From the IMG/VR virus record IMGVR_UViG_2868569063_000004, positions 58,875 to 122,874 of that record: a stretch of DNA of 64,000 nt, one strand, 5' to 3'. Both the position numbers and the translations under genes were made by a program. Of the stretch, positions 45,216 to 64,000 are shown in pieces; position 1 is the first letter of the stretch, and each line of letters starts with the position of its first letter. This DNA comes from a virus (lineage: Duplodnaviria > Caudoviricetes). The notes below the pieces were generated by a model. It did no database searches and was not told where the DNA came from. It saw only the letters and a list, made by a program, of their open reading frames with translations.

Positions 45216-47251
45216 AAGAAATGCGTGAATTAGTGGAAGAATTAAATATATATGCTCATGCGTATTATATGGAAGATACTTCTCTAATTTCTGATTATGA
45301 ATATGATAAAAAATATGATCGACTTAAAGAACTTGAGAAAGTTACAGGTATTATTTTAGCCAACAGTCCCACTATCAATGTTGGCTCAGAAACAGTTAGT
45401 GAGTTAGAAAAAGTCGAACATGATCATCCAATGTTGTCCTTAGACAAAACAAAGGATATAAATGAAGTTGAAAGTTTTATGAATGGTTTGCCAGGATTAG
45501 CCATGCTAAAAATGGATGGGCTTACTATTTCAGTAAAATATATAGATGGTAAATTGGTTGCTGCAGAAACTAGAGGGAATGGAATCATCGGAGAGAATGT
45601 TTTACATACAGCAAACAGTTTTGTAAATCTTCCAAAGGAAATTCCTTATAAAGATGAAGTAGTAGTTGATGGAGAAGCTGTCATGGAAATCCATCATTAT
45701 ACTTATCTTAAAGAGCTAAAAGATATTGATTTGAAAAAAGATGGAGAAAGAAAGGGACTTTTTGGTGAAGAATTAGAAAAATATATTAAAGATAATGGTA
45801 TTAAGAATATCAGAAATTTAACTGCTGGCTCTGTTAGACAGCTTGATAACTCCGTTACAAAAGAAAGAAAAATCAAGTTCATTGCTTGGAAGGCCGTTCG
45901 TGGAATAGATGGAAATAGTTTCATGAAAAGATTACAGATATTAGATCTGTTAGGATTTGAAGTGGTCCCTTGGGTAAAAGTTGATAATATTGAAGAGAAT
46001 ATTAAAGAACTTAGAAAAACCGCAAGAGAAAAAGATGTTCCTATTGATGGAATCGTATTTTCATATGATGATATTGATTATAGTGAAAGCTTAGGAAACA
46101 CATCACATCATGTTCGATCACAATTGGCATATAAATTTGCAGATGATAAGTTTGAAACAGTAATTAGAGATGTGGAATGGAGCATGGGAAAGACTGGACA
46201 GTTGACACCTGTGGCAGTTTTTGATCCGGTTGAAATAGATGATACTATTGTTGAAAGAGCTAGCTTACATAATGTGAGTATTTTCAAAAGTTATGAACTG
46301 TCAGTAGGAGATACGATTACGGTATATAAGGCAAACATGATCATTCCGCAGATCGCAGAGAATTTGACCAGAAACGGTGACAAATTGTTTACTGTGCCTG
46401 ACAAGTGCCCTATTTGTGGTGGTCATGTAAAAATTACAGGTGAAAATGAGACAGAAGAGCTTCAGTGCATGAACCTTGAATGTAAAGGGAAACTTCTTGG
46501 TGAATTATGTACTTTTGTAAGCAAAGAAGCACATGATATTACAGGGCTTTCTAAATCTACTCTGAGTCTATTAATAGAGAAAGAATTTATTAAAGGGCCT
46601 TTAGACTTATTTTATCTAAAAGACTGCCGGGGAATGTTAGTGACATTACAAGGGCTAGGAGCAAAAAAGGTTGATAAAATCCTGGAATCAATAGAAAAAT
46701 GCCGCAAGACAACTCTGCCTAAATTCCTTTATGGGCTGTCCATACCTTTAATCGGTCGAAGTGTTAGTAAGCAGCTAAACATTGTTGAAGAGAAGAGAGC
46801 AAGAGAAAAAGGGTTAAAAACAGCTTTTGATAGCTTTATTAAAGATATGGATTCTCAGTATGATTTTACATGTTTGGAAGACTTTGGTTTTGCGAAAGCT
46901 TCTTCTTTGAAAAATTATTTTGAAGAAAATCAAAGATACATAACTGAGCTTGCTGCGGAATTCCAGTTTGAAGAAATTTCTCAGGAGACGGTAAAAGATG
47001 TTTTGAATGGGGCAATATTCTGTATTACTGGGACACTCACCGAGTTTGCCAATAGAGCAGCTCTAGTAGAGAAAATAGAGTCTCTTGGAGGTAAAGTCAC
47101 AGGATCAGTAACTAAAAAAACTAACTACCTTATTAATAATGATACATTGTCAAAGAGTAGCAAGAATGTGAAAGCTATGCAGCTTGGTATCCCGATAATT
47201 TCAGAAAAAGAATTTTTAAACAAGTTTGTAAAAAAAGTGTTGACAAGGTAG
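45206..47251 (+). CDS. ligA: NAD+-dependent DNA ligase
   Basis: SDYEYD, HPMLSL, KMDG, TRGNG, DGIV, AYKF, zinc finger, HhH, C-terminal BRCT. Confidence 0.97.
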   Translation: MLLKEMRELVEELNIYAHAYYMEDTSLISDYEYDKKYDRLKELEKVTGIILANSPTINVGSETVSELEKVEHDHPMLSLDKTKDINEVESFMNGLPGLAMLKMDGLTISVKYIDGKLVAAETRGNGIIGENVLHTANSFVNLPKEIPYKDEVVVDGEAVMEIHHYTYLKELKDIDLKKDGERKGLFGEELEKYIKDNGIKNIRNLTAGSVRQLDNSVTKERKIKFIAWKAVRGIDGNSFMKRLQILDLLGFEVVPWVKVDNIEENIKELRKTAREKDVPIDGIVFSYDDIDYSESLGNTSHHVRSQLAYKFADDKFETVIRDVEWSMGKTGQLTPVAVFDPVEIDDTIVERASLHNVSIFKSYELSVGDTITVYKANMIIPQIAENLTRNGDKLFTVPDKCPICGGHVKITGENETEELQCMNLECKGKLLGELCTFVSKEAHDITGLSKSTLSLLIEKEFIKGPLDLFYLKDCRGMLVTLQGLGAKKVDKILESIEKCRKTTLPKFLYGLSIPLIGRSVSKQLNIVEEKRAREKGLKTAFDSFIKDMDSQYDFTCLEDFGFAKASSLKNYFEENQRYITELAAEFQFEEISQETVKDVLNGAIFCITGTLTEFANRAALVEKIESLGGKVTGSVTKKTNYLINNDTLSKSSKNVKAMQLGIPIISEKEFLNKFVKKVLTR

Positions 47252-52179: not shown

Positions 52180-52779
52180 ATGTTTCAAGTAGGAGATATA
52201 GTACAAGTAATAATAGTGCCTAAAAAATATAAACAATATGATATTGCAGGTGCTACAGGCGTTGTAAAAACAGTTTATTCTAACAATATAAGAATACATA
52301 TCTCTAGTTATTACAATGAAGAATCAGAAGAAGGAGATTTTTATTTTAAAGAAAATGAGCTAAATAATTTTACAAGAAAGGAAAATGATATGTCAATTAT
52401 AGAACTTTGGGAGAAAAGAAGTATTGAAAAGATTGATAAGGAAGCTGAAATTAAATTAATGGAATTGCTTGCAGAAGATGAATATACTCATGATTTAATT
52501 TTACACATGAATGATCTAAAAGATGCCGGGTTTAAAGTTGAAATACCAAATAATATTTATGATATGACTTCTGATTATACCAGAGGAATGAGAACTATTA
52601 CTTTAAGTTCAGCAGAAGAGAAAAAAGTTGAAATTAAAAAAGTAGCAGAAGAGATTGGTGTCTTATTAGAGATGTGTAAAGGAGACGTTGTTAAAGAAAT
52701 GGAGATTCTTTGTAGCTATAGAGTTGTAGAATATCCATTCGGGAGAATGACTGTTGGAGGTAGTACTTGTGGAAAATAA
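52180..52779 (+). CDS. Hypothetical protein with N-terminal KOW/SH3-like domain
   Basis: MFQVGDIVQV; possible internal start at MSIIELW. Confidence 0.75.
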   Translation: MFQVGDIVQVIIVPKKYKQYDIAGATGVVKTVYSNNIRIHISSYYNEESEEGDFYFKENELNNFTRKENDMSIIELWEKRSIEKIDKEAEIKLMELLAEDEYTHDLILHMNDLKDAGFKVEIPNNIYDMTSDYTRGMRTITLSSAEEKKVEIKKVAEEIGVLLEMCKGDVVKEMEILCSYRVVEYPFGRMTVGGSTCGK

Positions 52780-53302
52780 AAAGAAAATTTTGATTGTTAT
52801 TGATGTTCAGAATGATTTTGTGACAGGTTCGCTAGGTACACCGGAAGCTCAGGCAGTTGTACCGAATATAGTGAAAAAAGTGGAAGAATATAGATCAAGA
52901 GATGATGTGATTATTTTTACAACTGATACTCATTACGATGATTATTTGGAAACACCAGAAGGCAAAAAACTTCCAGTGTCACATTGTATTGTAGGAACTT
53001 CTGGCTATGAAATTATTCCAGAATTAAATGTTGAACTTTCAACAATGGAAAAGATTTATCCTAAAAATACTTTTGGATATAGATGGAATATAAGCCATTG
53101 GATATGTTGTTATGATGTTGAAATTATTGGTGTATGCACAGATATCTGTGTAGTAACTAATGCATTAGTATTAAAAACACATTATCCGGATATAGAAATT
53201 ACAGTTGATGCGTCATGCTGTGCCGGGACTTCACCGGAGAAGCATAAAGCAGCTTTAGAAGTGATGAAAAGTTGCCAGATTAATGTGATAGGAGAGAAAT
53301 AA
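52769..53302 (+). CDS. pncA: Nicotinamidase (isochorismatase family)
   Basis: VIDVQNDF, DTH, HC..GT.G, K, GVCTDICV. Confidence 0.85.
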   Translation: MENKKKILIVIDVQNDFVTGSLGTPEAQAVVPNIVKKVEEYRSRDDVIIFTTDTHYDDYLETPEGKKLPVSHCIVGTSGYEIIPELNVELSTMEKIYPKNTFGYRWNISHWICCYDVEIIGVCTDICVVTNALVLKTHYPDIEITVDASCCAGTSPEKHKAALEVMKSCQINVIGEK

Positions 53303-53303
53303 G

Positions 53304-53765
53304 ATGGTAGGAGAAAATACTGTGAAAATGAAGAAATTAGAAGAAATTACATTAGAGGATATTCAGAATTATTTATATGATAATGATTGTGATGAAACAA
53401 TCACAACAAAAATCGTTACAAAAAATGATGTGGAAACATTGCAGATTTTGGAATTTGATGGACATTATGACGATGATATTTTAGTTTGTTCAATCTATAA
53501 AAAGAATGGTGATTTTATTATATGTAGAAATGAGGGGATGATTTGTCCATTTAATCATGCAGATGGTATTGAATATGATGATGAAGAAAATGAACTGTTT
53601 AAGATTAGTACAATTGTCGCAGGATTATTAAGCGAAGCGAAAACTTCATTATGTGAATCTATTGATTACTTTCAAAGACAGGTGGATTTTATTAATAATT
53701 TCTGCAATGGTAATCATTTGAATAATCCGTCTGTAATAACTACCTGTGATATTGAGCATAAGTAA
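53304..53765 (+). CDS. Hypothetical acidic protein
   Basis: ORF with GGAG RBS. Confidence 0.7.
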   Translation: MVGENTVKMKKLEEITLEDIQNYLYDNDCDETITTKIVTKNDVETLQILEFDGHYDDDILVCSIYKKNGDFIICRNEGMICPFNHADGIEYDDEENELFKISTIVAGLLSEAKTSLCESIDYFQRQVDFINNFCNGNHLNNPSVITTCDIEHK

Positions 53766-53782
53766 AGGATAAGTTAACTAAA

Positions 53783-53968
53783 ATGAAAAATAACAATGTT
53801 ATGAGTATGAATCTTGGGGATGCTATTGTATTTGTCCTAGATAGAGATGACAGCGAATGGACATCTTATAATGATTTATTAGATGATTTAACAGAATGTT
53901 TTTGGAAAATGTTGCCATATTATCTTAAAGGAGTATCTAATAATGGCGAACAAAACAACGCATTATGA
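53783..53968 (+). CDS. Small hypothetical protein
   Basis: Fills the gap; weak RBS. Confidence 0.5.
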   Translation: MKNNNVMSMNLGDAIVFVLDRDDSEWTSYNDLLDDLTECFWKMLPYYLKGVSNNGEQNNAL

Positions 53969-54749
53969 AGTTTTTGATTATTGGAAAGATAAAAGTATTG
54001 ATAAATATGGAAATTGTTATATAGGTGATAATGTTGATTTTCATAATACAATTCCCATAGTGAATGATTGGGGAGAACCAGAATGCTATGCGTGTGGACA
54101 TTCTGCAATAGATTATTCTCACATGGAAGACAATGAAAGATATAATCAGGCGTTAGGAGAAGACGATGGTTTAAAGTATATATATTCAAGAAAAGATGTA
54201 AAACATAATTTACAGCTAGCACACATTAGACCAAAAGCATTACAAGGAGAAGATATACCGTCTAATTTTGTTTTATTATGTCCAAGATGCCATAGAGATG
54301 CGCCTGATATTTTAAATAGAAAATTATTCTTATCATGGATATACGGGCGTAGAAAAGAAGGAACAATTTATGTACGATGTAGAGAAAAAGCAAAAATAAT
54401 TTTGCATGATGCATATGGTATGAATGATTTTTATGCTTTGGCATTGATGAAAGACGCATCAACTGCATTAGATAGGACTAAGGTAAATACACATGGTTCA
54501 ATATTGTGCGAAGATACAATTACATATGGATTTGTACAAGAAGCATTTTTAAATAGAACCAAATTGAAAGAAGAGTATGAAAAGATGTTTAAATTTACAA
54601 TAGAAGAACAAATTAGAAAAATTAAATCAAAATACAATATGACAACCAGCACAGAACATTATTCAGAAGTGGACAAAGCGATTTTAGATACGTTGAGAAG
54701 TGTTTTAACACAATACGATACATTTAAAACGTTAGAAATGGCTGAATAA
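53943..54749 (+). CDS. HNH-like nuclease domain protein
   Basis: CYAC...AHIRP...G.D...N..LLCPRCH. Confidence 0.75.
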   Translation: MANKTTHYEVFDYWKDKSIDKYGNCYIGDNVDFHNTIPIVNDWGEPECYACGHSAIDYSHMEDNERYNQALGEDDGLKYIYSRKDVKHNLQLAHIRPKALQGEDIPSNFVLLCPRCHRDAPDILNRKLFLSWIYGRRKEGTIYVRCREKAKIILHDAYGMNDFYALALMKDASTALDRTKVNTHGSILCEDTITYGFVQEAFLNRTKLKEEYEKMFKFTIEEQIRKIKSKYNMTTSTEHYSEVDKAILDTLRSVLTQYDTFKTLEMAE

Positions 54750-54774
54750 GTGGATTAACATAATAGGGAAAAAA

Positions 54775-55137
54775 ATGATTTTTGGGTATAGAGTAGAAGA
54801 CCAAGTTGAAAAACATGGACTGTGGCGGAATTTTGATGGAACATGGAATCCTGTATTCGACCAGCTCTCAGAAGGATTGAGTAGAAACCTGCCAATGGAA
54901 GATAGTGAATTATACAGAGAAGGTGGGGAACAGTGGTTTTCAGCAGCACCGTCAAAAGAAACATTAAAACACTGGTTCAGTCTTACCGATGTTCTTGAAC
55001 TCCAGAAACTTGGGTATAAGATTTATGAATTTCAGCTTGTTGGAACGAAACAGATTTCAGATTTTGAGATTATTTTTACAAGAGATAACATTATTGAGCA
55101 GCGAGAAATAGATTATAAGGAGATTTGGAATGATTAA
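54775..55137 (+). CDS. Hypothetical protein
   Basis: YRVE...GLW...WFSA......L..WF. Confidence 0.72.
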   Translation: MIFGYRVEDQVEKHGLWRNFDGTWNPVFDQLSEGLSRNLPMEDSELYREGGEQWFSAAPSKETLKHWFSLTDVLELQKLGYKIYEFQLVGTKQISDFEIIFTRDNIIEQREIDYKEIWND

Positions 55138-55933
55138 ATTAAACGGCGTAGAAATCAAACTTGACAAATATCCTGATGGGACATTCTTATTTAAGAATAT
55201 CCCACCCATCGGAGGATGGTGTAGAGATAATATTGAATGGTTCTTTGAATCAATGGAAGAATTAACAGCAGTTGAATATATTACTAGATATTGTTGGGAT
55301 CATAGAGTAGTGCCTAATTTATATATGCCTTATATCCCAGATGCTCGTATGGATCGAGTTAAGTATGAGAACGAATTATTTACTTTAAAATATTTTGCTC
55401 AGACTATCAATTCATTACATTTTGGAAGAGTAGAAGTTTTAGATCCTCACTCTGATGTATCTGCCGCATTATTTAATAAAGTACATGTAGAGTCACCGAA
55501 TCGAATGATTGAAGATACTGTCAAGAAGATTGCTAGTGATAATCTTATGATGTTTTATCCGGATGCAGGATCTATGAAAAGATATTCTTCAGCAGTACAT
55601 CTTCCATATGCTTTCGGTATTAAGAATAGAGATTGGGAGACTGGAGAAATTAAAGGTTTAGATTTATCAGGTGAAATTAATCAACTGCCAGGTAAAGATA
55701 TCCTTATTGTAGATGATATCTGCAGCAGAGGTGGTACTTTTTATTATAGTGCTAAGAAACTAAAAGAAACAGGAGTAAATAAGATTTATCTTTATATAAC
55801 TCATTGTGAGAATACTATTTATGAAGGAGAACTTCTGAAAAACAATGGACTGATTGAGAAGATTTATACGACAGATACGATTCTAACAAATCTGGAAAGT
55901 CCTAAGATTGAATTGGTTGAGAGATTTAGATGA
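55130..55933 (+). CDS. prs: Ribose-phosphate pyrophosphokinase-like enzyme (candidate ADPR-PP synthetase)
   Basis: YPDGT, PY.P.ARMDR, DPHS, PDAG, K.R, IVDDICSRGGTF, TH. Confidence 0.88.
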   Translation: MIKLNGVEIKLDKYPDGTFLFKNIPPIGGWCRDNIEWFFESMEELTAVEYITRYCWDHRVVPNLYMPYIPDARMDRVKYENELFTLKYFAQTINSLHFGRVEVLDPHSDVSAALFNKVHVESPNRMIEDTVKKIASDNLMMFYPDAGSMKRYSSAVHLPYAFGIKNRDWETGEIKGLDLSGEINQLPGKDILIVDDICSRGGTFYYSAKKLKETGVNKIYLYITHCENTIYEGELLKNNGLIEKIYTTDTILTNLESPKIELVERFR

Positions 55934-55985
55934 ATCAGTCCTGTACACACGCAGCATTCTTGCAGAAAAGAGGTAAGAGAAGAAA

Positions 55986-56273
55986 ATAAGTAAATCAGTA
56001 TTAGTGATTGATACGCCAGAGAAATGTATACGTTGTCCGCTATTAAACGATGCAGATGAATGCACAGTACAAGATGCTAATGCAAATTTCAATGCTGGTG
56101 ATTCGTGGGATGAGTTAATGAAAGGATGTCCTTTGAATCCATTGCCGGATAAAATGAAATTAACAGGAGTGTACGGAAGAGAGTATTTTCAAAGCAATGG
56201 AAAAATGCCTAGCTACAAGATTGGTTGGAATGATTGTTTGAGAGAAATTACAGGAGAAGATAATAATGAGTAA
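55986..56273 (+). CDS. Cys-containing phage protein, probable ATA start
   Basis: (I)SKSVLVIDTPEKCIRCP parallels MSKVMLSIEEPNSCDECP of the next gene. Confidence 0.7.
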   Translation: MSKSVLVIDTPEKCIRCPLLNDADECTVQDANANFNAGDSWDELMKGCPLNPLPDKMKLTGVYGREYFQSNGKMPSYKIGWNDCLREITGEDNNE

Positions 56274-56634
56274 AGTTATGTTATCTATAGAAGAACCTAA
56301 TTCATGTGACGAATGCCCATTTTCAGAATTAGAAACGTATGGATATTATTGCCAATTATTAAATAAATACATTAATTCCTTAAAAAGGAAAGAACATTCA
56401 ACGATTCCTAAATTATGTCCATTAAGAGAATTACCAGATTACCGTACAGAAACATACAAATGGGAAGATAGACTTCTAAGCTTACAAGACGTGATTGAAT
56501 CAATGGCTTATGAAATTGCTACATATAGACACTCTAATAGATATTCTCATATAGAAGATGTGGATGATATTTTAAGAGAATATGAAGTTGATAAAATTAT
56601 AAAGGAGATGAGAAAGTATGGAACCAATTATTAG
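56266..56634 (+). CDS. Cys-containing phage protein, paralog of the previous gene
   Basis: P..C..CP...C...CPL..LPD. Confidence 0.75.
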   Translation: MSKVMLSIEEPNSCDECPFSELETYGYYCQLLNKYINSLKRKEHSTIPKLCPLRELPDYRTETYKWEDRLLSLQDVIESMAYEIATYRHSNRYSHIEDVDDILREYEVDKIIKEMRKYGTNY

Positions 56635-56959
56635 TCCTTGGTTGATTTATTTTGCAAGTAGAGCAGATGCAGTGGGGACTTTATTTCTGATTGTTGCAGT
56701 AGCTGCATTTGCAATATGTTTGATAGGATTTGATGATTTAACAAAGAATGGATTCAAGTTATTTATTTCAATTGGGATTATTTCTGTAATTTTAACAGTT
56801 CTTACACCAACTACCGAAACCGTTTATACAATGATGGTTGCAAATGAACTAACATCGGACAATGTTCAAGCAATTGGGAAAACCGGCAAGGATGTTATTG
56901 ATTACATTACTGATCAGATTGATAAAGTTGTAAACGACAAAGAGGAGGATAAAAAATAA
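56618..56959 (+). CDS. Membrane protein (two TM)
   Basis: PIISPW.IY, hydrophobic helices, P..ET.Y.M. Confidence 0.78.
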   Translation: MEPIISPWLIYFASRADAVGTLFLIVAVAAFAICLIGFDDLTKNGFKLFISIGIISVILTVLTPTTETVYTMMVANELTSDNVQAIGKTGKDVIDYITDQIDKVVNDKEEDKK

Positions 56960-58434
56960 TGGATACCTTAGCAATTCTGTTAAGCGATACTTACAAACAA
57001 GTACACCACAATATGTTTCCGAGAGGATTGACGAAGTTAGTCTCTTATTGGACTCCGAGAAGATCAATGTTAAAGGAGCAGGATCATATGGTTTTCTTCG
57101 GACTGCAGGCTTTTATTAAAGAATATCTTATTACATATTTTAAAAGAGATTTCTTTAAATTAAGCACTGATGAAGTTCAAGAACTTTATACAATTAGTAT
57201 GGACATTCAGTTAGGAGAAGGAAATTACGATATTTCTCCAATCCTTAAACTTCACGAATTAGGGTATCTTCCGATTCAGATCCGTGCATTACCGGAAGGT
57301 ACATTAGTGCCTATGGGAGTGCCATGCATTGAAATCACGAATACACATCCAGATTTTGCATGGGTTGTGCAGTGGATTGAGTGTATTCTGCAGGTTGAGC
57401 TTTGGAAGCCGTGTGCTCATGCAACAATTGGACATATGTACAGAGAACTGGCAAATTTCTACTATAAAAAGACCTGCGACGACATTTTAAGACCTGAAAT
57501 GGCCTGCTCAGACTTTGGAATGCGTGGAATGTCCTGTATGGAAGAAGCAGAGAGATGCTCCGTTGCTTGGCTATTATCCTTTGATAAGACAAGTACGATC
57601 CCGGCAATTGATTATTTGGACAAATATTATTTCAATGACTGTAGCGTGAGTCATATTGGAATTGGTGCGATTTCTACCGAACATGCGGTCATGGCTTCAA
57701 ATTATGCTGTGGACGGAGACGAAATTACATTTGTGAAAAGACTACTTACAGAATTATATCCGAATGCATCTTTCAGCATGGTATCTGATACATATGATTA
57801 CTGGAACATGATTGACAATATTCTTCCAGCTTGCAAAAAAGAAATTATGCAGCACAATGGTAAGCTCTTGGTTCGTCCGGATTCTGGTGATATGGTAGAG
57901 ATTTCAGTTAAGACTATCGAAAAACTCTGGAATACATTTGAAGGATCAGTAAATAGCAAAGGTTACAAAGTACTGGACCCTCATATTGGAATTATCTATG
58001 GTGATGGCTGTACTCTTAACAATGTAAAAAAGGTATGGGAAGAACTTGAGAAGAAAGGATTCGCTGCAAACAACATTGTATTTGGAGTTGGGGCTTTTTG
58101 TTTCTCGGCAGTTGTAGAACCTGATGGACGTATGGTCGTTGTAACCAGAGATATGTTCGGCATTGCTATGAAAGCTACATTTGGAGAAGTTAACGGACAA
58201 CCGATTATGATTTACAAAGATCCAAAGACAGATGTAAGCCATTTAAAGAAATCTCATAAAGGATGTTGTCATGTATATTACGATGAAAATGGAGAATTAA
58301 GGTGCAGAGATGGATATGACAGCTTTGTTTATGATGGGGCATTAAAAACTGTATTTAAAGACGGTGAAATATATCATACAGAAATATTTAAAGAAATCAG
58401 AGACAGATTAAACGGAAGAAACAAAGATGAGTAA
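56959..58434 (+). CDS. nadV: Nicotinamide/nicotinate phosphoribosyltransferase (Nampt-like; candidate Namat)
   Basis: DTYK..H, FFGLQ, DFG.RG, TEH.VM, VSDTYD, VRPDSG, GDG, FGVG, RD...A.KAT, KDPKTD...KKS.KG. Confidence 0.92.
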   Translation: MDTLAILLSDTYKQVHHNMFPRGLTKLVSYWTPRRSMLKEQDHMVFFGLQAFIKEYLITYFKRDFFKLSTDEVQELYTISMDIQLGEGNYDISPILKLHELGYLPIQIRALPEGTLVPMGVPCIEITNTHPDFAWVVQWIECILQVELWKPCAHATIGHMYRELANFYYKKTCDDILRPEMACSDFGMRGMSCMEEAERCSVAWLLSFDKTSTIPAIDYLDKYYFNDCSVSHIGIGAISTEHAVMASNYAVDGDEITFVKRLLTELYPNASFSMVSDTYDYWNMIDNILPACKKEIMQHNGKLLVRPDSGDMVEISVKTIEKLWNTFEGSVNSKGYKVLDPHIGIIYGDGCTLNNVKKVWEELEKKGFAANNIVFGVGAFCFSAVVEPDGRMVVVTRDMFGIAMKATFGEVNGQPIMIYKDPKTDVSHLKKSHKGCCHVYYDENGELRCRDGYDSFVYDGALKTVFKDGEIYHTEIFKEIRDRLNGRNKDE

Positions 58435-58900
58435 AATTACAGATTATTTATTAAAAGATGATGTGATTGTAGTAATGGATGTAGATGGAGTACTTGCTCC
58501 GTATGAGTTTTCTGAATTAAGTCATAGTATGACTGACGATGAATGGGACAGACTTGTAGCTTCCGGTGAGAATCCGTATAAAGATGTGCGTCCGATCAAA
58601 TTAATACAGGAGTTTATTCAGAAGAAAGGCGTGAATAAAGTATATACCTGTTCAAAGAGTCCTTTAAATGAAATTCCTGGTAAAAGAGCTTTTATAAAAG
58701 ACAATTATGATCTGCCAGATGATAATATCTATTTCACTTTAGAAAAGACAGAAAAACTTACTGTGCTTCAAACGCTGCAACAAAAGCTCGGACTTAAGCC
58801 ATCTCAGATTGCAATTGTAGAAGATACAGTTAAAACTTTGGATTATATTCGTGCACATAGCGATTTTGTAACTGTACATGTTTCATCATTTATGGAGTAG
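58427..58900 (+). CDS. HAD-superfamily phosphatase
   Basis: MDVDGVLA, CS, K, VED. Confidence 0.8.
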   Translation: MSKITDYLLKDDVIVVMDVDGVLAPYEFSELSHSMTDDEWDRLVASGENPYKDVRPIKLIQEFIQKKGVNKVYTCSKSPLNEIPGKRAFIKDNYDLPDDNIYFTLEKTEKLTVLQTLQQKLGLKPSQIAIVEDTVKTLDYIRAHSDFVTVHVSSFME

Positions 58901-58919
58901 ATATAGGGAGGTATTAAAA

Positions 58920-59321
58920 ATGAGTTATTTTACTGATTCAGTTTCAGATCTTTGTCAGGGGATTATTGATAAAGTAGATACTTATGAAAAACGAATCAAA
59001 TACTTAGAAGAAGAAAACAAAAAGCTCAAAGATGAGCATTATAAAGACTCTGAAATGCAGAGAATGAAAACAGAGTTGGAAAAAGCAAAAGATGATTTAC
59101 ATAGAGGATTTCCAATTTCTAAAGAAGAAGAGGAGAAAATCAAAGAGTGGCAGTTAAAACATGACGCTGAGAAACATGGTTTGAAAACTATGGAACAGAG
59201 ATTGAGAGCTGGCGGATGTTGTGGCGGGAGATATACATATCAATTTGTTCCCACAAGCATTGGAACTATTGGAGAAGTGATTTGCTCCTGTGGCGAGAAG
59301 TTTACATTTCAGGATTTATAG
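58920..59321 (+). CDS. Hypothetical protein
   Basis: Coiled coil then GG..TY.F.PT.IG....V.C.CG. Confidence 0.75.
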   Translation: MSYFTDSVSDLCQGIIDKVDTYEKRIKYLEEENKKLKDEHYKDSEMQRMKTELEKAKDDLHRGFPISKEEEEKIKEWQLKHDAEKHGLKTMEQRLRAGGCCGGRYTYQFVPTSIGTIGEVICSCGEKFTFQDL

Positions 59322-59331
59322 GAAAAGATTT

Positions 59332-59832
59332 ATGATTAAAATTATTGAAGGTAACATTGTAGATGCACAGACCGATTATATAATTCATCAAGTTAATTGC
59401 CAAGGAGAAATGAATACTGGAGTTGCTAAAGCATTAAGAGATTATGACGAAGGTATTTATATACATTATAGAAACGTCTGTAAATTACGTGAGTTTAATC
59501 CAGAATTACTTCTTGGAACATATGACGAGTACTTTATCAGAAGGAAAAATCAAGAGATATTGTCCTTATTTGCACAAGACAAGTATGGATATGATGGAAA
59601 ACAGTATACTGATGTTAAAGCTTTTCGAGAAGGATTAAATTTTATTCGACAACAAATACCTGTTTATTGGTTTGATGCTGATAACAGACCTCACAAGACA
59701 ACCATTGCACTCCCATATAAAATAGGCTGCGGAAGAGGAGGAGCAGACTGGGAAGTGGTTTATAAGATTATAGAAGAAGAATTAAGTAGTTTTGAAGTAG
59801 AATTGTGGAAATTGGAGGAGCAGAATGTTTAA
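59332..59832 (+). CDS. Macrodomain ADP-ribose processing protein (Poa1/DarG-like)
   Basis: IIEGNI, IIHQVNC.G.M..GVA, LFAQ, IALPYKIGCGRGGADW. Confidence 0.88.
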   Translation: MIKIIEGNIVDAQTDYIIHQVNCQGEMNTGVAKALRDYDEGIYIHYRNVCKLREFNPELLLGTYDEYFIRRKNQEILSLFAQDKYGYDGKQYTDVKAFREGLNFIRQQIPVYWFDADNRPHKTTIALPYKIGCGRGGADWEVVYKIIEEELSSFEVELWKLEEQNV

Positions 59833-60970
59833 TGTAGAAAAAGCAACAAATGATTGTATTCAGTGGATTAGAGATTGGAGAGAAGAGAATGGTCCTGGAT
59901 GTAATCTCATAGTAGGTATTTCCGGTGGCGTTGACTCTTTAGTAGCTGCTAAGCTATGTGTGGAAGCCGTTGGAGCTGACAAAGTTCTCGGAGTAATCAT
60001 GCCGAACTATAAACAGGATGATATTGATGTGGCTTATGATATTTGCCAGCATGTATTAAACATTGATTATCTTACTATTAATATTGGATCAGCTTATGAT
60101 GATATTATTGATCAAATTGATGCTGCATTTAATGTAACAGATCAGACATTAATTAATCTCGCTCCTAGACTAAGAATGACCACTCTATACGGGGTGTCAC
60201 AGTCACACAATGGAAGAGTGGTTAATACATGTAATCTTTCTGAGGATTACATCGGATACTCCACTAGATATGGTGACGCAGCAGGGGACTTTTCACCGTT
60301 GGCTCAGTTCACAAAGAGTGAAGTAAAAAGAATCGGTTATTATTTAGGACTACCTAAAAAATATATAGAGAAAACACCATCAGATGGGTTATGCGGTAAA
60401 TCAGATGAAGATAGCTTCGGATTTACCTATGCAGTATTAGATAGATATATTCGTACAGGTATTTGCGATGATCCGGAAATTAAAAGACGGATTGATCGTT
60501 TACATACAAAAAATAAGTTTAAACTGAAACCAATGCAGTATTTTAATTATAAAGAGGAGAAAACAGATATGAATATGTCACCAGATGAGATTTTAAAAGC
60601 ACTTGAAAAAGCAGTAGCGAAAAAAGAAAAAGAGCATACTATTGGAGAAGAGCTTAGAAGCTGTGAGCGTCAGATTAAAGATGCTTTAGGCATTGATGTA
60701 TATATTGTACCTAAAAATAAAACTGATAAACAGGTTTGTAAAACACTTTCGAAAGATGATATCACATTTGTAGGAAGAACAAAAGATATTGCTACAGGAA
60801 AAATTAGAACTACTGTAGGGTTCAAAGATGGAACACAGACTTCTGTAGTCTTAAATGATTGGGAAGACGAAGATGATACTGAAAAAGCCATTATGTGGTG
60901 TTTGCTTAAGAAGTGTTTCAAATCAAAAAGAAGCTTAGAAAAAGTAATTTATTCAATGGAGGACATGTAA
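59825..60970 (+). CDS. nadE: NH3-dependent NAD+ synthetase with in-frame C-terminal extra domain
   Basis: GISGGVDS, N..PR.RM, NLSE..IGY.T.YGD, K.PSDGL, DE..FGFTY. Confidence 0.92.
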   Translation: MFNVEKATNDCIQWIRDWREENGPGCNLIVGISGGVDSLVAAKLCVEAVGADKVLGVIMPNYKQDDIDVAYDICQHVLNIDYLTINIGSAYDDIIDQIDAAFNVTDQTLINLAPRLRMTTLYGVSQSHNGRVVNTCNLSEDYIGYSTRYGDAAGDFSPLAQFTKSEVKRIGYYLGLPKKYIEKTPSDGLCGKSDEDSFGFTYAVLDRYIRTGICDDPEIKRRIDRLHTKNKFKLKPMQYFNYKEEKTDMNMSPDEILKALEKAVAKKEKEHTIGEELRSCERQIKDALGIDVYIVPKNKTDKQVCKTLSKDDITFVGRTKDIATGKIRTTVGFKDGTQTSVVLNDWEDEDDTEKAIMWCLLKKCFKSKRSLEKVIYSMEDM

Positions 60971-61172: not shown

Positions 61173-61568
61173 ATGAAAATACGGAAAGGATTTGTTACTA
61201 ATTCAAGCTCTAGCAGTTTCATTATTTGCTTTGCAAGGATTGCTGACAAAGAAAAAGCTCAGAAGATAATTGATCAGTTCAATCTTGATGTATTAGATGT
61301 TACTGGTGTAAATGATGAAAAAAACTGGTCTGGTGAGCTTGGTGCTAGTTGGTGCGGAGCGGTCATTTATGGGGTTGATGACATTTTAGAAAAGCACCCT
61401 GATGGAGAATATATCGTAATTAAGGACAGTAACGATGCTTATTATGATGAATGGGGCGATGCTATATATGATTATGATTACTCTATGGGTGAAGCGATAA
61501 ATGTTATTACGAAAGTAAATGGATTTGCTGATATAAAAGTTGCCGAAGGAGAAGGGAGAGATGGTTAA
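61173..61568 (+). CDS. FVTNSSS-motif protein 4
   Basis: MKIRKGFVTNSSSSSFII. Confidence 0.82.
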   Translation: MKIRKGFVTNSSSSSFIICFARIADKEKAQKIIDQFNLDVLDVTGVNDEKNWSGELGASWCGAVIYGVDDILEKHPDGEYIVIKDSNDAYYDEWGDAIYDYDYSMGEAINVITKVNGFADIKVAEGEGRDG

Positions 61569-61951
61569 TGAAAATAAGAAGAGGATTTGTCACTAATAGT
61601 TCGTCTTCAAGTTATATTATTGCAAAAAAGAAAGATGCAACATTGACAGACATTAAAAACTCACTGTTGAAAGTAAGAGACAACGCTAAATCTTTTTTGA
61701 TTGAACAGCATAAATGGATTGATCTTGAGCCGGATGTAGAAGAGTCAATAAGAAAAGAAGATTATGATAAGGCTGCAGATGCGTTTTTAGAATATGTGGC
61801 AGATTATTTATACGGTAACTTTAATGCTGGAACATTGGGCGATTGGGAAGTTGGATCGGATGAGTTCTGGAATGACAATGGTGATCCATATGAAAATTTT
61901 ATTTTAGATTCTGCATGGCTTATTGGTGATGAAAACTTACAGATTATCTGA
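61568..61951 (+). CDS. FVTNSSS-motif protein 5
   Basis: MKIRRGFVTNSSSSSYII. Confidence 0.82.
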   Translation: MKIRRGFVTNSSSSSYIIAKKKDATLTDIKNSLLKVRDNAKSFLIEQHKWIDLEPDVEESIRKEDYDKAADAFLEYVADYLYGNFNAGTLGDWEVGSDEFWNDNGDPYENFILDSAWLIGDENLQII

Positions 61952-61960
61952 GGTGCAAAC

Positions 61961-62479
61961 ATGGAAATAAAAGCAAAGGAAATAATTGTAGATGGCAACA
62001 CATCTTATAAGTATTATAAACCAAAGTTCTGCTGTAAGGCATTGGAAGAAAATCCTAGAATAATTATTTCTAATGAATACCCTGATGCCTACTTATGTAG
62101 AACTTGTGAAACTGTAGTATGCCAAGACTGTGACTACGAAAGTAATGAAACTTTTGGAATTTTCTTTTACGTAAGCGAAGAAGTCCAAGACTGGGGAGAT
62201 ACATGGCCTGATGATTATTATTACCCTCTTAAATTCTGTCCATTTTGCGGAGAACCAATTGAAGTTGATGTCATAGAAACCATTGATAAAACAGAAGAAG
62301 CAGAAAAGGTATCTGAGGTTGCAACGAAGCTACGAAAACAGTTATGGGCATGTGATAGCAAGAAAAAGTGCGCAGAGTTAGAAAAAGAGATAAGGAACTT
62401 AGACGATATAGTAAATTATTATTATTCAACAGGAGAAATTGATGAAAATAGAGAAAATCAAAAAATTGTTGAAAAGTGA
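61961..62479 (+). CDS. Zinc-binding hypothetical protein
   Basis: FCC, CRTC, CQDC, FCPFCG. Confidence 0.75.
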   Translation: MEIKAKEIIVDGNTSYKYYKPKFCCKALEENPRIIISNEYPDAYLCRTCETVVCQDCDYESNETFGIFFYVSEEVQDWGDTWPDDYYYPLKFCPFCGEPIEVDVIETIDKTEEAEKVSEVATKLRKQLWACDSKKKCAELEKEIRNLDDIVNYYYSTGEIDENRENQKIVEK

Positions 62480-63473
62480 ACACTATGATTTCTTAAGAGC
62501 GAACGAGCACCTGGGGAGTAACATAATTCTATTAGGCTTAGGTGGGTCTCATGCTTATGGTACAGATACAGAAAACTCCGATCTGGATATTAGGGGTTGT
62601 GCTTTAAATAAAAGAGAAGAAATCCTGATTCCTACACATAATTTTGATCAGGTAACGGAAGAAACAACAGATACAACAATCTATTCTTTTAATAAATTGA
62701 TAACTCTATTGTCAAACTGCAACCCAAACACAATTGAGCTGATAGGATTGAAGCCAGAACATTATCTTTATATTCATCCAATTGGTCAAGAACTTCTTGA
62801 TAATGCTGAAATGTTTTTATCTAAGAAAGCAATCTATTCTTTTGGAGGCTATGCTACAAGCCAGTTAAGAAGGCTTGATAATAAAGCTGCCAGGAAATTG
62901 AGACAAGAAGAAAGAATGCAGCATGTTCTTAATAGTATTATGAATGCTTTTTATACTTTCCCTGAAAAGTATTTCAATTTTCCAGAAGATGCAATAAAGC
63001 TTTATGTAGATAAAGGTATTCAGGAAGATTATGAAACAGAAGTATTTATGGATATCCAGTTGAAGCACTATCCTTTGAATGATTATCAGGGGATGTGGGC
63101 CGAAATGAAAAACATTATTAGGGATTATTCCAGAATTGGGAAGAGAAATAAGCATGCCATAGAACATAATAAGTTAGGAAAGCATATGTGCCATTTAGTG
63201 AGATTGTATCTTATGTGTTTTGATATTCTTGAAAAAGGCAAAATTATTACATATAGAGAAGATGATCATGAGCTTCTTATGGCTCTACGTAATGGAGAAT
63301 ATTTGGATGCAAACAGTCAGCCTATCCCAGAATTTTTTGAAATGGTAAACGAGTTAGAGAAAAGACTTGAGTATGATTCAAAGAATACCTTATTGCCTGA
63401 TAAACCAAATTATAAAGCTATAGAAGAATTTGTAATGTCTGTCAATGAAAGAATTGTATTAGGAGAGATTTAA
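62442..63473 (+). CDS. Pol-beta superfamily nucleotidyltransferase (YcgL/RlaP-like)
   Basis: GGSHAYG....SDLDIRG, NPN.IE, SF.GYA..Q, K...H..RL. Confidence 0.88.
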   Translation: MKIEKIKKLLKSEHYDFLRANEHLGSNIILLGLGGSHAYGTDTENSDLDIRGCALNKREEILIPTHNFDQVTEETTDTTIYSFNKLITLLSNCNPNTIELIGLKPEHYLYIHPIGQELLDNAEMFLSKKAIYSFGGYATSQLRRLDNKAARKLRQEERMQHVLNSIMNAFYTFPEKYFNFPEDAIKLYVDKGIQEDYETEVFMDIQLKHYPLNDYQGMWAEMKNIIRDYSRIGKRNKHAIEHNKLGKHMCHLVRLYLMCFDILEKGKIITYREDDHELLMALRNGEYLDANSQPIPEFFEMVNELEKRLEYDSKNTLLPDKPNYKAIEEFVMSVNERIVLGEI

Positions 63474-63475
63474 GA

Positions 63476-64000
63476 ATGAATTTTAATGGATTAAAAAGTA
63501 GCGAAGTAGAGGTTAGTAGGACTACATATGGAAGTAATAAGCTTCCGGAGCCTGAATTGAAGAAATGGTATCATTTTGCTAAGGAGGCATTAACTGAACC
63601 AATTACTATGATTCTAATAATAATTGCTTTGTTTCAGTTGGTTTTAGGAGCTATGGGAGTAATGTCTCTTTCTGAACCTGTAATGATTATAGTGGTTTTA
63701 GCTATTGTTACTGGAATTGCTATTAAGACAGGTCTAGGCGTACAGAAATCTGCAGCAGAGCTAAGAGCAAAAACGGCAGTTAGATATTGTGATGTTGTCC
63801 GAGATGGAAGCGTACAGACAATTAATAAAGATGATCTGGTAGTAGGTGATTTAGTTCTATTGAGAACTGGACAAGAGATTTTTGCAGATGGATTTATTGT
63901 TGATGGAGAAATTTCTGTTAATAACGCCGCTATCAATGGAGAGACAAAAGAATGTAGAAAAATTCCTAGAGCGTGTCTGAAAAACATTTTAAATTGTTTA
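63476..64000 (+). CDS. Cation-transporting P-type ATPase, N-terminal part (runs off the window, not in ORF track)
   Basis: GL...EV..SR..YGSNKL, two TM helices, V.RDG....I...DLVVGD...L..G..I.ADG, AINGE. Confidence 0.88.
   Translation, partial: MNFNGLKSSEVEVSRTTYGSNKLPEPELKKWYHFAKEALTEPITMILIIIALFQLVLGAMGVMSLSEPVMIIVVLAIVTGIAIKTGLGVQKSAAELRAKTAVRYCDVVRDGSVQTINKDDLVVGDLVLLRTGQEIFADGFIVDGEISVNNAAINGETKECRKIPRACLKNILNCL

Follow-up and report, generated by a model that had tools for sequence, protein, structure and literature searches.

Depletion of NAD+ is among the commonest strategies by which bacteria resist phages, and among the known ways in which phages counter it, NAD+ reconstitution pathway 1 (NARP1) is the principal one. 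The locus described here encodes, beside a NARP1-like pair of enzymes, a nicotinamidase. It lies at positions 52754-60970 of a 64,000-nucleotide stretch of DNA (referred to as the window), which corresponds to positions 58,875 to 122,874, viz. the last 64 kb, of the 122,874-bp IMG/VR virus record IMGVR_UViG_2868569063_000004 (Duplodnaviria; Caudoviricetes), a record carrying a provirus flag and a rating of 76% complete. An earlier examination of the letters alone (the sequence-only reading) named six functions in this span, viz. PncA, Prs-like, Nampt-like, HAD, macrodomain and NadE, and all six are encoded on the + strand, at the positions it gave or close to them; only the PncA start, put at 52769, is an internal codon of a + frame that begins at 52754. 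Based on the sequence comparisons described below, this module appears to be a variant of NARP1 that implies an undescribed enzyme reaction, and we give an even chance to the proposal that it is a deamidated (nicotinate-type) variant, in which nicotinic acid adenine dinucleotide (NaAD) would be made directly from nicotinate and ADP-ribose pyrophosphate (ADPR-PP).

In NARP1, ADP-ribose (ADPR) and ATP are converted by Adps to ADPR-PP, from which Namat makes NAD+ with nicotinamide (bioRxiv 10.1101/2024.02.11.579819). The phages known to carry it include Bas63, SPbetaL1, FADO and ICP1, and structures have been described (PMC12774641, PMC13586617). In the NARP1-AP form, from Vibrio phage Gary, NARP1 is accompanied by the Poa1p-like macrodomain protein Adpp, which converts ADPR-1''-phosphate to ADPR (bioRxiv 10.64898/2026.01.28.702374), and NARP3 consists of PnuC and NadR (PMC13464706). 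When the NARP papers (Osterman 2024, aRES/NARP1-AP and NARP3) were searched for a nicotinamidase, NadE or a nicotinate-using transferase, no mention of these terms was found, and no description of phage NAD+ rebuilding via nicotinate was found in the literature searched.

The most informative protein of the module is the Namat-like transferase (491 amino acids, + strand, 56959-58434). Its match to the SPbetaL1 Namat structures (9w5x/9w5w) has an E value of 3e-110 (41% identity), versus 1e-55 for human NAMPT, and on these similarities it is placed in the Namat clade; the catalytic core of Namat is retained in it (F189, R192, R306, D308, the G390 loop and TRD). The nicotinamide pocket of Namat is made up of F189, R192, D215, A242, R306, D13' and Y15', of which D215 forms a hydrogen bond with the amide (PMC12774641), and in human NAMPT the corresponding Asp219 sets the substrate specificity (PMC7096376; PMC4919578). 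Based on pairwise HMMER alignments to SPbetaL1 Namat, 9ke8 and human NAMPT, from which the pocket positions were read, Ser212 of the window protein (motif KTST) is equivalent to D215 of SPbetaL1 Namat, to its equivalent in 9ke8 and to D219 of human NAMPT (motif GTDT). A second pocket change places Ser239 at the position of SPbetaL1 A242, and G236 corresponds to SPbetaL1 S239. For human NAMPT, Table 2 of PMC4919578 gives D219S as a substrate-switching change (see also PMC7096376; originally from Khan et al. 2006). Columns were compared between 53 sequences of the Ala/Ser/Val type and 100 of the Asp/Glu type, most of which represent clusters at 50% identity; exactly two of the seven published pocket residues (D215 and A242) differed between the groups, and three columns across the whole protein discriminated between them, viz. 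D215 to A/S, A242 to S and S239 to G; the remaining pocket and ribose-phosphate contacts are conserved in both. The two pocket residues thus seem to have been rebuilt as would be expected for a carboxylate, with the repelling Asp gone and a hydroxyl donor gained, and the transferase, having lost its nicotinamide-reading residues, most likely works on nicotinic acid. The sequence-only reading had argued that the transferase must use nicotinate if the presence of PncA is to make sense, and both the active-site comparison (Ser212/Ser239) and the co-occurrence with PncA and NadE speak for this.

The distribution of the pocket types was determined in 424 loci, which came from scans of IMG/VR, one metagenome scan and GenBank phages and were scored with purpose-built hidden Markov models. 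At positions 215, 242 and 239, the residues (D/E, A, S/T) are present in 131 loci, while 291 loci contain A/S at 215 together with Ser at 242, with Gly at 239 in 288 of them, and the pocket types are never mixed across the 424 loci. Partner genes were counted within 10 kb of those distinct transferase sequences that have at least 5 kb of sequence on both sides. PncA, NadE and a Prs-like gene are all present with 158 of the 160 distinct A/S forms so flanked, and the Prs-like gene is present in every one of these loci, whereas PncA or NadE accompanies none of the 66 flanked distinct D/E forms and none of the Asp-type loci from the metagenomes. NadE is otherwise rare in GenBank phages, being found in 43 of 50,697 records, versus 2,042 with Namat/Nampt. 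The set remains intact where the gene order is shuffled, as in MT835544 (Prs-Namat-Macro-NadE-PncA), and a Namat of the Ala type with only 33% identity, from Phass-1, lies in the order PncA-Prs-Namat-x-NadE. Phass-1 (L050, OQ749652.1, 96860-101298) is a gut phage with a TAG-recoded genetic code (code 15), and its module adjoins a large array of tRNAs, a suppressor tRNA among them. As the synteny of the gene set recurs across several hundred viral and metagenomic loci, its grouping is not due to chance.

In a phylogenetic tree based on 142 representatives, the non-acidic forms make up one clade (44 tips, support 0.995), which is nested among the Asp-type relatives of Namat. Repeated independent switches from Asp to Ser or Ala, viz. 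convergent covariation, were also considered and were rejected, as the tree gives one clade and one origin. The association with PncA and NadE also holds in the basal Ala-type members that have a canonical Namat clamp (L345, L346 and Phass-1); for the basal representatives of the clade (P0135, P0138, P0162 and others), the genomic context is that of the P0135-like branch, obtained via the metagenome scan. These basal members contain an intact Namat clamp, GIGSYTYQYNTRD, yet PncA is already found upstream of their transferase and NadE downstream of it, and due to this it is the change in the pocket, rather than the insertion in the clamp described below, that by sequence tracks PncA and NadE.

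The three enzymes that accompany the transferase can each be assigned to a known family. The PncA-type nicotinamidase (182 amino acids, + strand, 52754-53302; Pfam PF00857, Isochorismatase, E 1.2e-25) has the P. horikoshii nicotinamidase 1ilw as its best solved relative and shows the features of the isochorismatase fold; the triad D17/K104/C132 and the metal-binding residues D58/H60/H77 can be aligned to those of P. horikoshii PncA and do not vary among 164 distinct PncAs from such modules. The Adps-like enzyme of the Prs family (267 amino acids, 55130-55933; phrog_619, E 2.5e-67) is encoded on the same strand as the transferase and 1 kb from it, and its identity is about 42% to SPbetaL1 Adps, which has been validated biochemically, and 32% to that of ICP1, with matches to cellular PRPS reaching E values of about 1e-14 at best. 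Among the ligand-contact residues of ICP1 Adps, as taken from PMC13586617, R87, H121, D161, K185, D212 and D213 are kept and F18 is replaced by Tyr, and the contact positions are all conserved in the Adps-like proteins of both the A/S and the D/E modules. The NH3-dependent NadE (+ strand, 59825-60970; Pfam PF02540, E 1.7e-48) scores 163 bits with TIGR00552, for which the cut-off is 63.65, and its SGGxDS loop (GISGGVDS here) is invariant in 158 module NadEs. No nitrilase/glutaminase domain is present in the window NadE, which is of the single-domain ammonia type; its core (residues 1-242) is followed by a C-terminal extension of 137 residues (60557-60970 in the window), which is confined to the phage subgroup of the window, the other module NadEs being about 250 amino acids long, and has no relatives in Pfam, PHROG or ESM Atlas.

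From the gene content, family memberships, pocket substitutions and strict co-occurrence given above, we infer the following substrates and products. The trigger would be a host NADase defence, cleaving NAD+ to ADPR and nicotinamide, and PncA would then convert the nicotinamide to nicotinate and NH3. The Adps-like enzyme would make ADPR-PP and AMP from ADPR and ATP, and the Ser-type transferase would join nicotinate to ADPR-PP to give NaAD and pyrophosphate, without the need for an adenylyltransferase. NadE would complete the route by forming NAD+ from NaAD, NH3 and ATP. The Poa1p-like macrodomain may convert ADPR-1''-phosphate to ADPR and so feed the Adps-like enzyme, as in NARP1-AP, and the HAD phosphatase, which in some relatives is fused to the transferase, would be an accessory. 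The sequence-only reading had arrived at the same deamidated route, and its nicotinate part is well in line with the pocket and the co-occurrence, whereas its other part, the use of ADPR-PP as the donor, is contested by the partial loss of the adenine clamp and by a NadM-type gene in sibling phages.

The main rival to this proposal, which we regard as possible but rather doubtful, is a phage-borne Preiss-Handler pathway, in which nicotinate and phosphoribosyl pyrophosphate (PRPP), made by the host or by the Prs-like enzyme, would give nicotinic acid mononucleotide (NaMN), the latter would be converted to NaAD by host NadD or a phage NadM-like enzyme, and the phage NadE would form NAD+. Almost every bacterial host is expected to have NadD, so that such a route could draw on it. 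One point that bears on the donor is the adenine "selectivity clamp" of Namat, which consists of R40, F392, Y396, T398 and D400 with the signature GSXphiXphiXphiTRD (PMC12774641). The corresponding region of the window protein reads GAFCFS, a 10-residue insertion and VVTRD, and does not match the canonical SCH signature. The insertion is hairpin-like and splits the SCH motif, with His, Lys, Arg or Tyr after the turn in most variants. In the Ser subclade to which the window belongs, R40 is replaced by Met (M37 in the window) and Y396 by Val, so that two of the three adenine-stacking residues are replaced. Because of these replacements and the splitting of the motif, recognition of ADPR-PP appears less secure in this subclade than in the Ala-type members. 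Further, SPbetaL1 Namat itself accepts PRPP in vitro (PMC12774641), and the NCBIfam label for the window transferase is nicotinate phosphoribosyltransferase (PRK09198, 458 bits); the PncB-type models PRK12484 and TIGR01513 match it only weakly. However, in most of the A/S clade the adenine contacts are kept: the AMP/adenine contacts D361, F392, T398, R399 and D400 are at least as conserved as in the Asp-type Namats, R40 is present in 42 of the 53 sequences, and these retained contacts argue for an adenine-bearing donor. Apart from this, Namat-like homologues of 550-1100 amino acids (P0180, P0189, P0224 and many others) are split by large insertions; in three of them, intein-like inserts of about 300 residues lie exactly inside the SCH clamp motif, and other inserts lie near residue 316 (RPDSGD).

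The loss of clamp residues is one of several points that weigh against the direct synthesis of NaAD, and the others concern the remaining genes. Sibling phages of the window (G001-G003, with an 82%-identical transferase) carry, directly after a NadE of normal length, a NadM-type adenylyltransferase of 191 amino acids (L426:1390-1965, - strand), which contains the motifs GRFQTFHKGH and ISGT and has archaeal nicotinamide mononucleotide adenylyltransferases (NMNATs) as its best NCBIfam matches. Of the Ser-type loci, 21 of 100 have a NadM-type gene no more than 10 kb away, versus 3 of 111 of the Ala type and 1 of 68 of the D/E type, and such a neighbour is what would be expected if the product of the transferase were a mononucleotide. 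No residues that discriminate Adps from PRPP synthetases were found in the Adps-like protein, the conserved contact positions being features of PRPS as well. The NadE is about equally similar to the NMN (nicotinamide mononucleotide) synthetase of F. tularensis (3fiu, E 1.2e-33) and to P. horikoshii NadE (2e18). Lastly, as the A/S forms make up one clade, the association with PncA and NadE has a single origin and, although long maintained, it represents one inherited event. Against the Preiss-Handler pathway, on the other hand, it counts that no NMNAT is present in four complete genomes that carry the module (G005, G004, G009 and Phass-1), in which the phage would thus boost all of the steps but one. 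The Prs-like protein, kept in every flanked locus, groups with the validated Adps, and SPbetaL1 Adps gave no measurable product when it was assayed as a PRPP synthetase (bioRxiv 10.1101/2024.02.11.579819). The macrodomain of the ADPR-1''-phosphate phosphatase type is also most frequent in this very subclade, being present in 82 of 100 Ser-type loci versus 34 of 111 Ala-type and 9 of 68 D/E loci; the published share among NARP1 loci is 15%.

With regard to an adenylyltransferase in the window phage itself, the sequence-only reading had seen none in the window, and this observation stands and can be extended, as no PF01467 adenylyltransferase is present in the window, in the whole 122,874-bp record or in the complete relative G005. 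A nucleotidyltransferase of the Pol-beta superfamily (RlaP-like, phrog_388; 62439-63473) was considered as a hidden adenylyltransferase and dropped; only 41 of 211 A/S loci have it near the module, as do 4 of 68 D/E loci, and in some relatives (L031-L035) it has a place within the module, either separating the transferase gene from that of NadE or directly following the latter. The sibling phages mentioned above combine Adps-like, Namat-like and NMNAT genes in one genome; no phage with both NARP1 and NARP2 was found by Osterman et al. (bioRxiv 10.1101/2024.02.11.579819).

A second rival, which we consider quite improbable, is a pathway similar to that in Francisella, in which nicotinate would be converted to NaMN, the NadE homologue would act as an NMN synthetase (NaMN to NMN), and a NadM-type enzyme would form NAD+. 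The nearness of the window NadE to 3fiu and the NadE-NadM gene pair of the sibling phages are what this explanation would call for, and the pairing of an NMN synthetase with NadM is documented in Francisella (PMC3376133). However, neither NadM nor another NMNAT was found in the window, in the complete G005 or in the three further complete genomes; the route would be a detour relative to an Asp-type Nampt, and the short archaeal NadE of M. jannaschii is a plain NaAD amidase. The least probable explanation of all is that this is a canonical nicotinamide-using NARP1 with neutral pocket changes and with PncA and NadE as unrelated passengers (e.g., PncA removing nicotinamide for some other reason and NadE boosting host synthesis), for, although Ser/Ala at the Asp position is by itself compatible with nicotinamide binding and phage genomes are mosaic, the co-occurrence (158/160 versus 0/66) extends down to about 33% Namat identity and across shuffled gene orders, the sole clade-defining changes in an enzyme of about 490 residues lie in or beside the base pocket, and a transferase specific for nicotinamide would have its substrate destroyed by PncA.

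The deamidated variant proposed here can be compared with the known systems as follows. It resembles NARP1 in its neighbouring Prs-family and Nampt-family genes, which are from the same two clades, in the catalytic core, in its phage context and, presumably, in the use of ADPR from NADase defences; it differs in having Ser in place of both Asp215 and Ala242, an insertion splitting the SCH motif and Met in place of R40, in being accompanied by PncA and NadE, which is so for no sampled NARP1 locus of the Asp/Glu type, and in its implied product, which would be NaAD and not NAD+. The likeness to NARP1-AP consists of a gene for a putative Poa1p-class macrodomain, with a matching predicted fold, in one string with the Adps and Namat genes, but here the macrodomain gene is the third one downstream of the transferase and is combined with PncA, NadE and HAD genes. 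NARP2 (Nampt with NMNAT/Nudix, as in Vibrio phage KVP40) likewise relies on a salvage enzyme of the Nampt family, and a NadM-type gene is present in the siblings of the window, whereas the window phage lacks NMNAT, has an Adps-like partner, and its transferase belongs in the clade of Namat and not in that of KVP40 Nampt. The bacterial Preiss-Handler pathway (PncA, PncB, NadD and NadE) shares with the module its first and last enzymes and the deamidated logic, but neither a PncB-type nicotinate phosphoribosyltransferase nor NadD is present here, and a pair of the Adps/Namat type takes the middle position. The D219S mutant of human NAMPT has Ser at the equivalent position; here, however, this is the natural state of an entire clade, is accompanied by a further Ala to Ser change, and occurs in an enzyme descended from a Namat that uses ADPR-PP.

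More broadly, the Ser/Ala-type relatives of Namat, which account for about one-third of the nearest Namat-like clusters at 50% identity, would represent a new enzyme, a nicotinate ADP-ribose transferase, that together with PncA, Adps and NadE constitutes a fourth, deamidated, phage pathway to NAD+, found widely among the large phages that infect gut Clostridia and other anaerobes, with the HAD fusion and the macrodomain as dedicated substrate-supply accessories; in our judgment this wider claim is evenly poised between being right and being wrong. If it is true, a large and abundant branch of gut-phage "NARP1" carries out different chemistry, with a new enzyme reaction that yields deamido-NAD, and its loci are now mis-annotated, as nicotinate phosphoribosyltransferase in NCBIfam and as nicotinamide phosphoribosyl transferase in PHROGs. 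It would also provide a naturally occurring switch of specificity, through two residues, within the NAMPT fold, and it would raise the question of why passing through nicotinate helps, for which a stronger thermodynamic pull, hosts that quickly deamidate nicotinamide, or an intermediate resistant to NADases are possible reasons.

The two accessory genes are both missed at standard Pfam thresholds. The small HAD-superfamily phosphatase (157 amino acids, + strand, 58427-58900) has a Pfam E value of 0.039, and its Pfam and NCBIfam scores are below the cut-offs; however, the HAD motifs I-IV are kept (D18-V-D20, S76, K110 and E132-D133), and its AlphaFold2 (AF2) model, with a predicted local distance difference test (pLDDT) value of 90.6, has HAD phosphatases exclusively as its top PDB matches. 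Its start overlaps the stop of the transferase gene by 8 bases (58427-58434), and in-frame fusions of the two proteins, about 646 amino acids in length, are present in relatives (P0002, P0012, L008, L013, L016 and L018), the P0012 cluster alone comprising 2,406 member sequences. Because of this overlap and these fusions, the HAD phosphatase is taken to be functionally tied to the transferase. The macrodomain protein (166 amino acids from its ATG, + strand, 59332-59832, with an open frame from 59290) is missed by default Pfam (Macro, E 0.11), but it matches phrog_335, annotated as "phosphatase" (E 7e-37), and the NCBIfam DarG macrodomain (E 5e-13), and its homologues carry Poa1p-like annotation. 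Its AF2 model (pLDDT 94) has as its best PDB matches the DarG macrodomain followed by Poa1p and TARG1 (5m3e, 6lfq and 4j5s, with Poa1p 6lfq at rank 2), and it is thus of the Poa1p/DarG/TARG1 class. Adpp is defined as a Macro-domain protein (PF14519, PF01661 or PF20016) whose closest characterized homologue is Poa1p (bioRxiv 10.64898/2026.01.28.702374). The published criterion for Adpp further places it within two genes of the NARP1 genes, and the macrodomain gene here is the third downstream of the transferase. We propose that it may be an Adpp-like ADPR-1''-phosphate phosphatase, with a glycohydrolase activity of the DarG type also compatible with the predicted fold; the earlier suggestion that it frees ADPR is thereby refined to a protein of the Poa1p-like class acting on ADPR-1''-phosphate.

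In addition to the six named functions, seven open reading frames (ORFs) are present in the span, all of them on the + strand. An ORF of 153 amino acids (53304-53765), which is without a family match and is confined to close relatives, follows PncA. The next is an HNH endonuclease (268 amino acids, 53943-54749; Pfam HNH, E 1.8e-6), for which no tblastn match was obtained in any of 48 close relatives; lying between PncA and the Adps-like gene, it is likely a recent mobile insertion outside the pathway. An ORF of 120 amino acids (phrog_23161, 54775-55137) lies just upstream of the Adps-like gene and overlaps it. Between the Adps-like and transferase genes are three small ORFs (56004-56959) that vary among relatives, encoding proteins of 89 and 122 amino acids (Cys-rich) and a membrane protein of 113 amino acids (phrog_3878). 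Lastly, an ORF of 147 amino acids (58878-59321), with a coiled coil and a C-terminal Cys cluster, is kept between the HAD and macrodomain genes in relatives. Every ORF in 52754-60970 is on the + strand and many of them overlap by a few bases; a scan for promoters and terminators over 51.5-63.6 kb gave results at chance level, and an operon was not defined by it.

The phage has a G+C content of about 34%, and related phage genomes are 100-180 kb in length, with terminal repeats in some. G005, a near-identical relative of 162,615 bp that is rated 100% complete, encodes module proteins that are 97-99% identical to those of the window. A megablast search of the 8.3-kb region against GenBank phages gave no match, and the relatives were reached at the protein level. 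Since a 499-kb contig of Ruminococcus sp. AM36-2AA contains a 76%-identical transferase, and further ones are found in metagenome-assembled genomes of Lachnospiraceae, the host is a gut Clostridia bacterium. Elsewhere in the window, the NAD-dependent DNA ligase named in the sequence-only reading is indeed present, as a LigA adenylation domain at 45398-46141 within a frame of 686 amino acids, and, as an enzyme that uses NAD+, it would draw directly on what the module restores. The window ends within a gene for a P-type (E1-E2) cation ATPase (63476-64000, running off the end), the N-terminus of which recurs at the equivalent position of related phage genomes with 59-97% identity, and due to this conservation its interpretation as the host flank of a "provirus" was rejected, as it is a phage gene. 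Two adjacent ORFs just downstream of the module (131 and 127 amino acids; 61173-61951) share a common N-terminal leader, matched by phrog_7397 on residues 1-22 and 1-31 only, and their bodies are divergent.

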